The notes below the pieces were generated by a model that did no database searches, was not told the origin of the DNA, and worked only from the letters and a program-made list of their open reading frames with translations. From a virus (lineage: Duplodnaviria; Caudoviricetes): DNA of 64,000 bases. The stretch covers positions 7,247 through 71,246 of the IMG/VR virus record IMGVR_UViG_3300033073_001149. One strand, written 5' to 3'. Positions 24,969-44,642 of this stretch are shown piece by piece. The translations under genes and the position numbers were made by a program. Numbering within the stretch: the first letter of the stretch is position 1; each line of letters begins with the position of its first letter.

Positions 24969-25313
24969 TTAAAATGGTAGCGTATCGGTATCGGGGGCTT
25001 TCCATTGCTCTTGTTTGTCCTCTACCGAGCCTCCTGCTGTGCTACGGGTTGTTACTATGTTGTAGGCTTTTAATTGGGTATACCACTTATTGTTATACTC
25101 ACGGCTTTCTGCGTCGTACTTAACAACTACTTCTGTACCTACGCCCTCTAAGTTAGAAATTTGGTCATTCCACACCTCAAAGGCTACTTTTTTAGGGTAC
25201 TGACTTTCAGTTTCTATGGCAAAGGTTTGTTTTTTCCATTCCTTTCCATTTTTACCTGTTCCTGTTTCGATTGGCAATACTGAAATTACCTTTCCTTTTA
25301 ACTCTGCGCTCAT
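24969..25313 (-). CDS. DUF3127 ssDNA-binding-like protein (114 aa)
   Basis: GKVI.VLP..TGTGKNGKEWKKQTF.IET..QYPKK..F..W...SREYN.KWYT, with an acidic DTLPF tail typical of SSBs. Confidence 0.8.
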   Translation of the reverse strand: MSAELKGKVISVLPIETGTGKNGKEWKKQTFAIETESQYPKKVAFEVWNDQISNLEGVGTEVVVKYDAESREYNNKWYTQLKAYNIVTTRSTAGGSVEDKQEQWKAPDTDTLPF

Positions 25314-25528
25314 TATTTCTGTTTTTCTTGTGTTTCAAATTGATTAGTTGTCCACCCAAAGTGGGTAAGTAGTTTGTATAGGGTGCAAATATGTGGTGTG
25401 CCGCCTTTTTTCATTATAGAATATAGCGTGTCCTCGTTTATGCCTACCTCTTTTGCAAATTTAGGATAGCTTAGTTCGCCCTTTTTTTTGAGCAACTCGT
25501 CCCTAAATGCTGTTGTGTTAAAAACCAT
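25313..25528 (-). CDS. XRE/Cro HTH regulator (71 aa, start re-assigned to 25528)
   Basis: LSYPKFAKEVGINEDTLYSIMK HTH; TATATTTG box lies 4 nt before this ATG. Confidence 0.75.
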   Translation of the reverse strand: MVFNTTAFRDELLKKKGELSYPKFAKEVGINEDTLYSIMKKGGTPHICTLYKLLTHFGWTTNQFETQEKQK

Positions 25529-25596
25529 AGGGCAAATATATGTGGTTTGATTTAATCCACCAAACAATTATGAAAATAAATATTTTTCGTTTTTCT

Positions 25597-25750
25597 CTTG
25601 CGTATATCAAAAACTTGTTCTTACTTTGCAGAGTTCAGTTCGCTGTGAGAGGCTCTGAACAGAAACAGTAACTACATTTACATACATATTTCGGTTTAGC
25701 CGAACAAAGCCCTTCAAAAAGCCTCTCACGTAAAAAACGAGGGGCTTTGT
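25597..25750 (+). promoter_or_regulatory. Promoter plus structured leader with loop-loop complementarity
   Basis: TTG...TTACTTTG (25621-28); stem GTTCAG/CTGAAC holding GTGAGAGGCT (25645-54); stem ACAAAGCCC/GGGCTTTGT holding AGCCTCTCAC (25720-29). Confidence 0.6.
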
Positions 25751-25754
25751 CGTT

Positions 25755-26090
25755 TAAGGGTATTTGCTAATACGGGTTGAAACTACGGCGGGGCTTATAT
25801 CTGATTAGAGTGGTGCTAACTGCGAAACGAACATAGCACCGAGGCGATACGAAAGAGAGGTGCCAAGATGTCGATGTCTGATTAAGGGACAGGAAAAAAG
25901 CTCTCAACTCAATGTAGCTTAGTCAGAACATTGGGCACTAAACGACGGCGGACTACGCTCAAGCAGAGCAAAGAAAGTTAAGTTGGGTGGTGGGTGCGAA
26001 CTTGAAGATTTTTAGTCTTTTCGGAAGGCATACTATCACCTTTACTCAAGCAAACAAACGCTAAGCAAGGATTTAACCTTAACTTAGTAA
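25755..26090 (+). ncRNA. Candidate large structured RNA (about 335 nt)
   Basis: ORF-free and GC-richer than its flanks; stems found by eye include GGTGCTA/TAGCACC, GTGCC/GGCAC, CTGATTAAG/CTTAGTCAG, GCTC/GAGC, TTGGGT-GGTG/CACC-ACTCAA, CTAAG/CTTAG. Family not identified. Confidence 0.5.
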
Positions 26091-26108
26091 GTAATATATA
26101 AAGTAACT

Positions 26109-26666
26109 ATGCAACGAATAATTTTCTTAGATATTGACGGGGTATTAAACTGCCAAACGTTCTATATAAGTCAGCAGCACTTAGATTACAAGTCTGCTAA
26201 AAAGACATTGCGTAAGTCCGTTAAATCAAAAGCTGTTGAGCGGTTGGATTATTACCAAGGTCAAATTTGTAGGGAACGTTTGGGTTGGTTATCCGACTTA
26301 TGTAATGAGTTAGATATTAAAGTTGTTATTTCAAGCACTTGGCGTATGGGTAAGACCATTGAGGAACTGCAAGAAATTATTAACTACTGTGGTGGCTCGT
26401 TTGAGATTATTGGTAAAACGGAACGATTAGGCTATGAAAGAGGTATTGAGATAAGTAAGTGGTTGCAAGATAACATTAAACCCGAAACACACGGCTGCTT
26501 TTCGTCTGATTTTTACTCCTATGTTATTATAGATGATGATAGCGATATGTTACTTAACCAAGCCCCTCACTTTTTTCAAACAGATGCTTATAGCGGGCTA
26601 ACGCCTAATACCATTTATAAAATAAAACGGTTTTTTACATTAAAAACTTTTGGATACGAACAATAA
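26109..26666 (+). CDS. HAD-superfamily protein of the Swiss Army Knife RNA-repair type (HAD_SAK_2-like), 185 aa
   Basis: IIFLDIDGVLN, VVISSTWR, RG.EI..WL, YVIIDDDSDML..Q..HF.QTD...GLT motifs. Confidence 0.85.
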   Translation: MQRIIFLDIDGVLNCQTFYISQQHLDYKSAKKTLRKSVKSKAVERLDYYQGQICRERLGWLSDLCNELDIKVVISSTWRMGKTIEELQEIINYCGGSFEIIGKTERLGYERGIEISKWLQDNIKPETHGCFSSDFYSYVIIDDDSDMLLNQAPHFFQTDAYSGLTPNTIYKIKRFFTLKTFGYEQ

Positions 26667-26680
26667 TAAATACAAAAACT

Positions 26681-26734
26681 ATGAAAATAACAATCAACTC
26701 AGACAAAGAATACAACGCTAAAACAATATTTTGA
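26681..26734 (+). CDS. Possible 17-aa leader peptide (MKITINSDKEYNAKTIF)
   Basis: A-rich leader AAAAACT-ATG as in neighbouring genes; its TGA overlaps the first stem of the downstream RNA. Confidence 0.3.
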   Translation: MKITINSDKEYNAKTIF

Positions 26735-26910
26735 GGCGGTAGGGTGATAAAAACACAACCTTGTCGGGTAGTGTGATGGCAGATATATGGGGGCAGTCAG
26801 TGAACGCCTGCGCTAATGCGTTTTCAATGGCTGATTGCTCTGAACTACGAAAACCCTTTAAATCATGTTTCGATTATCTGCAAAGACCGCTTGGTTGTCC
26901 GATAACAACT
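26733..26910 (+). ncRNA. Candidate structured RNA (about 180 nt)
   Basis: Nested stems GGCGGT/ACCGCT, GCAGATA/TATCTGC, GGGCAGTCAG/CTGATTGCTC (two G-U pairs), AACGC/GCGTT, CGAAA/TTTCG, then GTTGT/ACAAC. Confidence 0.55.
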
Positions 26911-26913
26911 ACT

Positions 26914-26940
26914 AATCCTCAGAAATGGGGATTTTTTATT
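26914..26940 (+). terminator. Terminator closing the plus-strand RNA/HAD unit
   Basis: AATCCTCA-GAAA-TGGGGATT followed by a T run. Confidence 0.75.
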
Positions 26941-27310
26941 TTATAATAAATTTATACAGCTCCCGTGTATAGAATTGAATTAGGTAAGCCCACGCCTCAT
27001 CGCTATCATCAGTCAATACAAAGCCTTTCTCTCTTAATATTTGGTCTGCTACGTGGAATATTTCGTGTTGCAACACCCCAAAATGCGCTGCTGTATATTC
27101 CCATTGATTAACAAATACAAAAAATAGCTGATTAGTATGAATAACAGTTAAGGCAACATCGGAACTATTGTTATCAATGGCTGTTTTTATCTCCTCGTTT
27201 GTATATGACTTAGGCAAGTGCTTTCGTAGATATTCATACGTAGCACTTTCTTTACCAAATACAAATACCGTAGTGTGGCAATAGATTTCACAATTAATAG
27301 CTTTTACCAT
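26936..27310 (-). CDS. HExxH-motif (zincin-like) protein (124 aa)
   Basis: LQHEIFH motif with downstream DEAWAY. Confidence 0.55.
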   Translation of the reverse strand: MVKAINCEIYCHTTVFVFGKESATYEYLRKHLPKSYTNEEIKTAIDNNSSDVALTVIHTNQLFFVFVNQWEYTAAHFGVLQHEIFHVADQILREKGFVLTDDSDEAWAYLIQFYTRELYKFIIK

Positions 27311-43107: not shown

Positions 43108-43430
43108 TATGCTTTGTGTTTGGTTAAAAGTTCGTTAATAGATTTATATATATCGTTGTTAGCATCGTTAAGTTTGCCTATAAATGCTTTATCCTTAATT
43201 TGAACAAGCAACTCTTTCATATCCTCGTTCTGCTGCTTTAGGGTATGGTAGCTTTCACGAATACCCATTAGATATTGATAGTTATCTTCCCAAATTACTC
43301 TGCAATCAACCTTTGGGTATTGCGGGTTTATTGCGCCTAACATAATTTTGTCGCTACCTGCTTTTATTAATTGCGGCTCAACAAATCGAAAATTATCTTC
43401 GGTACGCTTTTGTTCGTTATTACTTTCCAT
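43107..43430 (-). CDS. Hypothetical protein (107 aa)
   Basis: Coupled ORF. Confidence 0.5.
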   Translation of the reverse strand: MESNNEQKRTEDNFRFVEPQLIKAGSDKIMLGAINPQYPKVDCRVIWEDNYQYLMGIRESYHTLKQQNEDMKELLVQIKDKAFIGKLNDANNDIYKSINELLTKHKA

Positions 43431-43472
43431 TTTTTGTTTTTTAAGGATTTTAGAATAAATTTTGTTCGTCTT

Positions 43473-44642
43473 TCATATCGGCACGTTAATTTCAACTTCT
43501 TGCTTCATAGCCCCGCCTATTGGCGGCAACTCCACAAGCTCTTTGGTAATGCCTTTACCTGATAATGCTATATTTTTAATGTTAATGGCTGCGTTTAAAT
43601 CCCTATCGTGGACTTCTCCGCATTCACAAACCCATTTCCTGTGTTGTAATTTGAGGTCTTTATTAATCAACCCACAAACATTACAGGTTTTTGAACTCGG
43701 CTCAAATCTACCAATACGTATGATGTTCTTACCATACCAATTAGACTTGTATTCCAACTGTTGAGTAAACTCGCCCCAACTTGCATCGGATACACTTTGG
43801 GCTAACGAATGGTTTTTTAAAATTCCTTTTATGTTTAGGCTTTCCAAACAAATCGTATCGTGGTTATTGATTAAATTTGTTGAAAGTTTATGTAGAAAAT
43901 CTTTGCGTTGGTTAGTAATTTTTTCGTGTAGCAACGCAACCTTTTGACGTGCTTTGTTACGATTTGCGCTGCCTTTTTGTTTTCTTGATAGTCTACGTTG
44001 TAAAACAGCCAATCGTTTAGTAGAGGCTATCAGGTGCTTCGGGTTGGCTATTTCTTGCCCGTCCGATAAAACAGCAAAAGTTTTGATACCCAAATCAACA
44101 CCAACTACTGTATCTTGCAATATTGGTTTTTTATCAGGTATTGCTATTCCTGTTTCGCAAAGAATAGATATAAAATACTTGCCAGTTACGGTTTTGGAAA
44201 CGGTAGCTTGGCGTATTTCTCCAACAATGGGTTTACTTTCAATAAGCCTAATGCCTACCTTAAATTTAGGTATCGTTACCTTGCCGTTTTTTATTCTTAC
44301 AAAACTTCCGTTTGGGCAATTAAAAGAAGCCCGTTGGTTTTTCTTTTTATATTTAGGATAGCCTTTGCCTTTGTATAAATTCTTAAAAGCCTTATCCATA
44401 TTACAAACAGCACCCTGAAGTGCCCCTATGCCTATTTCATTTAACCAACCACAGTCTTTTTTTAATTGTGTTACTTGCCTTTGTAAGTCATAGGCTGTTA
44501 CAGACTTCCCATACTCTTTATATAGCCTTATTTTTGTTTCAAGCGCAAGATTATATACAAAACGACAAGTGTTAAAGTGTTTTTCTAGCAGTTCAACCTG
44601 TGGCTTTGTGGGGTACAATCTATATTTATATGCTCTTAACAT
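43473..44642 (-). mobile_element. tnpB: TnpB RNA-guided endonuclease (IS200/IS605-derived), no tnpA nearby (389 aa)
   Basis: MLRAYKYRLYPT N-terminus; RuvC D (GVDLG), E (CLESL), D (HDRDLNAAINI); zinc finger CNVC...CECG; omegaRNA-like GTGGAG...GAAGCAAGAAG overlapping the 3' end. Confidence 0.9.

Follow-up and report, generated by a model that had tools for sequence, protein, structure and literature searches.

A lone HAD_SAK_2 phosphatase gene with long, unconserved flanks in a reversed island of a freshwater phage

Introduction

In phage T4, a 3'-phosphatase activity heals the ends of tRNAs that a host anticodon nuclease has cleaved, and the operons of Rsr (Ro), Y RNA and RtcB are an earlier case of a repair protein whose gene neighbours those of non-coding partner RNAs. 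Accessory genes, for their part, may be carried by phages as morons: single genes, each with a promoter and a terminator, that are inserted between the genes of an operon. We know of no member of the HAD_SAK_2 phosphatase family with a tested substrate. Healing of RNA ends is the role predicted for the family, a prediction that we take from its citation in PMC7824862.

The gene described here compares with these systems to different degrees. It is like the stand-alone phage HAD_SAK_2 phosphatases (PF18143; PHROG 1818) in its full-length profile match, its single domain of ~180 aa and its invariant catalytic residues, but their genes are packed into operons on one strand, a few bases apart, whereas this gene is alone, reversed and bordered by long non-coding flanks. 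With the 3'-phosphatase domain of T4 polynucleotide kinase/phosphatase (Pnkp; PDB 2ia5, 5uj0) the protein shares a cap-less HAD fold and the DxDG nucleophile motif, but identity is 12%, there is no fused kinase domain and the record holds no kinase or RNA ligase gene; the likeness is moreover non-specific, generic HAD phosphatases such as MDP-1 scoring equally well or better (Z 9.8). Like a moron, the locus lies within a cluster of co-oriented genes and consists of a single accessory gene, a promoter-like region and a terminator of its own, and its homology to other phages is limited to the ORF; unlike typical morons, its untranslated flanks are unusually long (~480 and ~270 nt), and its promoter is putative. 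The Rsr-Y RNA-RtcB operons are similar in idea only, that of an RNA-end enzyme next to structured RNAs: here no Y-RNA, tRNA-like or other Rfam match is found, RtcB is absent and the flanks are unconserved.

We analysed a 64,000-nucleotide stretch (the window) of a freshwater Bacteroidota-type phage, taken from IMG/VR virus record IMGVR_UViG_3300033073_001149 (71,246 bases; completeness estimate 61%). The original prediction for this locus was that an RNA-repair phosphatase and two large structured RNAs flanking it may form one module. That module finds no support in our analysis: neither flank belongs to an Rfam family or has a homologue, and homologues of the phosphatase gene occur without such flanks.

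Results

The nearest cultured relatives of the phage terminase (~29% identity) belong to Flavobacterium, Cellulophaga and Maribacter phages, which makes a Bacteroidota host likely. The genome is gene-dense (88% coding) and its stop usage is ordinary under the standard code (TAA 67, TAG 16, TGA 11). The genes between 29.1 and 19 kb are tightly spaced on the minus strand, and within this region lies a 1.3-kb plus-strand island (25621-26945) flanked on both sides by minus-strand genes, a layout that had been predicted and that the ORF map bears out. The neighbours of the island are genuine genes, with matches to DUF3127 (E 1e-26) and phrog_1365 (E 2.9e-9). Divergent from the island is a small Cro/C1-type HTH gene (25313-25528, minus strand), which codes for 71 aa from the ATG at 25528; this 71-aa form is the one on record, in a cluster named 'DNA-binding phage protein', and the protein has weak matches to HTH_26/HTH_28 and to the phrog_4268 repressor. 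Convergent with the island is the 124-aa phrog_1365 gene (26936-27310, minus strand), the last gene of the upstream minus-strand cluster. Base composition sets the island apart, at 47-48% G+C in 25700-26000 and 45% in 26750-26900 against 31-39% nearby. On the minus strand, an exact TATATTTG box occupies 25533-25540; because the HTH gene's ATG at 25528 follows the box (read from 25540 to 25533) by just a few bases, the sequence suggests a leaderless or near-leaderless HTH mRNA.

At the centre of the island stands a 185-aa phosphatase gene (26109-26666, plus strand). Its product matches PF18143 HAD_SAK_2 with an E value of 1.4e-22 and 81 bits (cut-off 27.5) across profile positions 1-137 of 139, and also matches PHROG 1818; the assignment to the Swiss Army Knife RNA-repair HAD family had thus been right. 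The protein has 1172 homologues, the closest 78% identical, apart from a near-identical one on a 917-nt contig. The catalytic motifs scored were the DxDG nucleophile, the Ser/Thr motif II and the acidic motif IV, and here D8, D10, G11, D142-D144 and D146 are invariant across a 40-sequence alignment and S75/S76 nearly invariant, every one of them being present in the window protein. An AF2 (AlphaFold) model (pLDDT 90) has a HAD Rossmann-like fold with little or no cap, and its best structural matches are MDP-1 (Z 9.8, 139 residues aligned, rmsd 4.2) and a wide range of HAD phosphatases; for the phosphatase of T4 Pnkp, Foldseek gives a probability of 0.99 but a TM score of only 0.46. Together, the profile match, the invariant motifs and the modelled fold point to an intact phosphatase of a family predicted to heal RNA ends, and the HAD fold, as modelled, would not by itself single out RNA as the substrate.

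In searches whose controls were positive, RtcB (PF01139), Rnl-type ligase (PF09414) and AAA_33 PNK-like kinase (PF13671) were absent from the 71-kb record, whose completeness is estimated at 61%; the phosphatase stands alone there. ARAGORN, run over the whole 71-kb record with thresholds lowered to 80%, found no tRNA or tmRNA, so that the predicted absence of tRNA genes holds for the entire record. Distant relatives of the gene have a different neighbourhood: among those below 45% identity, a tRNA or tmRNA gene lies within ~3 kb in 23 of 52 loci and within 500 nt in 15 of the 52, often at a distance of 17-33 nt. Distant members are thus often found within phage tRNA arrays, which makes an RNA-end role for the family plausible. 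This RNA-gene neighbourhood does not extend to the clade of the window gene (at least 45% identity), where such a gene is present at only 1 of 108 loci. The tRNA-array loci, in each of which the HAD gene lies at ~3001, are L031, L035/L036, L049, L055-L057, L061-L063, L065 and L068-L070. Other RNA genes were seen near homologues as well, namely phage tmRNA genes at distances of 0.5-2.5 kb and, near another homologue, a group I intron (57.5 bits); the positions concerned are L060:67-452, L078 and L079:4004-4388, and L029:4768-4986.

A transcript of the island would begin near the string TTACTTTG (25621-25628, plus strand). A promoter had been predicted at 25621, and the string is indeed there, but it is a near match rather than an exact one to the Bacteroidota -7 box TAnnTTTG, from which it differs by one base. 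The window contains 84 copies of the box where 89 are expected, and hence shows no enrichment; the promoter function of the string is putative. For the promoter-proximal, AT-rich segment 25549-25630, 31 of the 401 Bacteroidota genomes sampled contain short matches (23-40 nt, 85-96% identical), where ~4 would be expected at the E-value limit, and the segment may be common promoter-like or low-complexity sequence; beyond such short AT-rich matches to the promoter region, the 401 genomes yielded nothing for the flanks.

The leader proper (25630-25750, plus strand) contains two hairpins, the inverted repeats I8 and I10, with repeat arms at 25704-25715/25739-25750 and an exact 10/10 loop-loop complement at 25645-25654/25720-25729. 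Its fold z is -2.28 over 25620-25760, and in the window-wide scan it scores ~-1.9 on both strands, a symmetry at the DNA level. It is followed by a G+C- and purine-rich stretch (25750-26090, plus strand; 44-48% G+C) that has neither an Rfam match nor a homologue and that is most likely the remainder of a long 5' untranslated leader. This is the stretch for which a multi-stem, ORF-free element of about 335 nt had been proposed: it is ORF-free, with no plus-strand ORF of at least 30 aa in 25672-26108, but its structure does not rise above chance, the element at 25740-26108 having a fold z of -1.49 with 7 of 100 shuffles folding equally well. From 25764 to 26090 the plus strand forms one open frame if four internal TAG codons are read through, a feature plausibly due to chance.

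Downstream of the phosphatase gene, the predicted 17-codon ORF is present (26682-26735, plus strand). Its start region is like that of the HAD gene, a direct repeat (D1; 40 nt, 70% identical) surrounding both ATGs, and its translation is putative. The trailer that follows (~180 nt; 26735-26912, plus strand) is most likely a 3' untranslated region. Its predicted fold is multibranched, and the whole-element z is -2.75 over 26667-26945, but this is not unusual against the window-wide scan, and because a 61-aa TTG-started ORF (26761-26946) overlaps the element and runs on through the terminator hairpin, the downstream stretch is not ORF-free. The island ends, as predicted, with an intrinsic terminator (26914-26945, plus strand), in which a hairpin at 26914-26933 (8-bp stem, 4-nt loop) is followed by a T-run; it closes the island against the convergent gene.

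Known RNA families did not account for either flank. Rfam 15 gave no matches in the window at gathering scores, and relaxing the limit to E <= 10 over 25400-27100 gave one chance match, on the opposite strand; the scan that the original prediction had proposed as a check thus assigned neither flank to a family. A tmRNA tag region at 25940-25970 was considered and rejected, ARAGORN at 80% and Rfam at E <= 10 both being negative and an alignment with two phage tmRNAs revealing no acceptor or T-arm. A group I or II intron split by the ORF was likewise rejected, as there is no Rfam match and plus-strand exons are absent.

Folding was assessed locally and across the window. In a local scan of 25600-26099 at 50-nt steps, the plus strand had z values of -1.4 to -3.3 in seven of eight windows, with the minus strand at ~0; given this plus-strand bias and their richness in G+C and purines, the flanks may be under some selection for RNA structure. 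The window-wide scan covered 639 windows of 150 nt on both strands and had a background mean z of -0.2 to -0.3 (sd 1.15), with 7% of windows at z <= -2. Windows in the island scored -1.97, -1.43, -2.25, -0.78, -1.34 and -0.67 (trailer, -1.3 and -0.7), and the five-window mean of ~-1.2 lies outside the top eight stretches (~-1.7 to -1.8), most of which are coding. The thermodynamic signal for flank RNAs is thus weak. Among the most stable minus-strand stretches was the 3' end of the TnpB gene (43301-43750, minus strand), the expected location of a guide RNA, and the scan is therefore able to detect such an RNA signal. The strongest local fold of the neighbourhood lies inside the HAD coding region (26150-26299, plus strand; z -4.85) and rests on an inverted repeat of 17 nt (26153-26169/26267-26283).

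We compared the locus with HAD loci from IMG/VR (80) and from metagenomes (80), the best of them 75% identical at the protein level. Searches of both flanks by blastn and nhmmer, which covered 168 loci, found no similarity. At the DNA level, 69 homologous loci resemble this one only over 26109-26700, the ORF, and the similarity ends at its borders. A six-frame tblastn search against the HAD loci, which served as a test for decayed neighbour genes, was negative, and such genes were rejected as the origin of the flanks, their six-frame translations matching no HAD neighbours in relatives. In ~130 loci the HAD homologues belong to operons on one strand, where the gaps to neighbouring ORFs have medians of 18 nt (upstream) and 2 nt (downstream), and an upstream gap of at least 400 nt occurs in only 1 of 130. 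Co-occurrence of the gene and its flanks, which the original prediction had named as a check, is not seen in these loci: homologues sit in tight operons, routinely without such flanks, which is the outcome that the original prediction had itself named as speaking against it.

Wider searches gave the same picture for the flanks. There was no blastn match in 50,697 phage records and no flank paralogue in the phage's own genome; a 17-mer scan of IMG/VR returned four matches, all due to chance, and a two-anchor pattern returned 5 chance matches in IMG/VR and 109 in GTDB genomes, all without extended similarity. A single-sequence covariance model of the downstream element, run over 670 kb of related loci, matched only itself. 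By sequence comparison, the flanks are not conserved across a set that consists of distant HAD contexts rather than of close relatives at this interval. Close relatives of other parts of the phage do exist: the terminase cluster at 90% identity or above (91%) comprises 49 members, whose JGI contigs reach 67 kb, an 81%-identical terminase is found on a 46.6-kb contig, the HTH protein has relatives at ~85% identity, and a HAD protein 97% identical to that of the window lies on a 917-nt ENA contig; IMG/VR contains none of these. For another relative, whose terminase is 93% identical, the genome is represented by its structural side only, and GTDB genomes contained no close phage relatives. The genes flanking the island have no relative above 45% identity in IMG/VR and are singletons at 90% identity, so the accessory region is mosaic even among near relatives.

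Discussion

We explain the island best, with about even confidence, as a moron-like accessory cassette, in which the HAD_SAK_2 ORF was captured alone and is carried with its own divergent promoter region, long untranslated ends and a terminator. Such a cassette would be self-contained and reverse-oriented, sharing its promoter region divergently with the small HTH regulator gene, and would be read as a ~480-nt 5' leader, the cap-less phosphatase gene, a ~270-nt trailer and the intrinsic terminator. The ORF alone would have been acquired from the widespread phage HAD_SAK_2 pool. The flanks match no family, lack relatives and fold unexceptionally, and are therefore most likely long untranslated ends; they would be lineage-specific, with roles, if any, as untranslated regions and not as conserved partner RNAs. 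Local hairpins in them could tune or stabilise the mRNA, or could halt transcription ahead of a collision with the convergent minus-strand operon, and the enzyme most likely dephosphorylates a macromolecular end, in keeping with the family prediction of RNA 3'-end healing. Some features count against an accessory cassette of this kind: a simple accessory gene would hardly need a leader of 480 nt, the fold energies of the flanks favour the plus strand, the promoter is no more than a near match to the consensus, and nearby non-coding DNA is poorer in G+C and purines than the flanks.

This composition of the flanks, which is specific to the plus strand, speaks for an alternative in which one or both flanks would be real, lineage-specific structured RNAs working with the phosphatase, whether as decoys or substrates of host ribotoxins or as an RNA whose ends the enzyme processes. 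Plus-strand z values that are steadily negative beside a minus strand near zero, the z of -2.75 of the downstream element and the linkage of distant HAD_SAK_2 relatives to RNA genes (23 of 52 loci within ~3 kb, 15 within 500 nt) all lean the same way. We nonetheless consider partner RNAs rather unlikely, since no Rfam family, no homologue in any search and no paralogue in the genome was found, HAD homologues at 45% identity or more never have such flanks and carry a tRNA or tmRNA in 1 of 108 loci, the fold signal is unexceptional across the window, and RNA-repair partner genes are absent. If the flanks were real partner RNAs, the island would be a compact phage module of an RNA-end phosphatase and its dedicated RNAs. 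More specifically, they could be new lineage-restricted structured RNAs, co-transcribed with the HAD mRNA or processed from it, that serve a phage without tRNAs as decoys or substrates against RNA-cleaving host defences; this version we hold to be improbable, though if true it would amount to a protein-plus-RNA counter-defence cassette loosely like the Rsr/Y-RNA repair modules. Functionless flanks are somewhat easier to entertain, though still unlikely: recombination scars or decayed genes left by the insertion of a reversed HAD ORF, with the transcription and termination signals incidental. Homology to other HAD loci does stop exactly at the ORF borders, the flanks are unique, the 17-codon ORF has a gene-like start region after which its frame is broken by three TGA codons, and the upstream stretch is open only with four TAG codons read through. 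But the readthrough peptides have no homologue (0 matches in 1.8e9 proteins, no PHROG match), the six-frame translations are unlike the HAD neighbours in relatives, the unit is closed by a clean terminator, and ~750 nt of junk would be unusual because the genome is otherwise compact, at 88% coding.

That the flanks encode small proteins seems very improbable. Candidate frames are present, among them the 17-aa ORF, whose start context resembles that of the HAD gene, the 61-aa TTG ORF at 26761-26946 and frames recoded with TAG=Q or TGA=W, but none of the peptides has a homologue, all three stop codons are in normal use, the record has no suppressor tRNA, and the 61-aa ORF starts with TTG and passes through the terminator hairpin. 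An alternative genetic code, which would give a TAG=Q frame of 108 aa upstream and a TGA=W frame (three TGA) of 74 aa downstream, was rejected on the normal stops and the lack of homologues: the 108-aa TAG=Q peptide had 0 matches among 1.8 billion representative proteins, the readthrough peptides had no PHROG match, and no homologue of the 61-aa ORF was found. We give equally little credence to a role of the G+C-rich, ORF-free stretch as DNA, be it as an origin, as a packaging site or as a region bound by a regulator. The stretch lies ~4.5 kb upstream of the terminase gene, adjoins the divergent HTH regulator gene and contains short repeated words (AAACnACGGCGG twice, ATnTCTGATTA twice), but each word occurs in two copies only, with no iteron array, no skew shift marks the locus, and the two-word pattern yields chance matches only elsewhere.

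On this evidence, the accessory cassette adds one more stand-alone HAD_SAK_2 gene to the family, in an unusual isolated setting. The embedding of distant members in tRNA arrays is a useful by-product of the comparison and supports an RNA-end function for the family.

Another RNA came to light in one of these arrays. Contig IMGVR_UViG_3300028797_000007, a 111-kb phage contig with an 18-tRNA array, carries within the array, between tRNA-Glu and tRNA-Phe, a 155-nt element (L069:5663-5817, plus strand) that aligns to the Rfam OLE RNA model (positions 437-594) with 102.5 bits (gathering score 50) and keeps the conserved single-stranded motifs. By its sequence, the element would appear to be a free-standing unit of the OLE 3' domain, carried by a phage.
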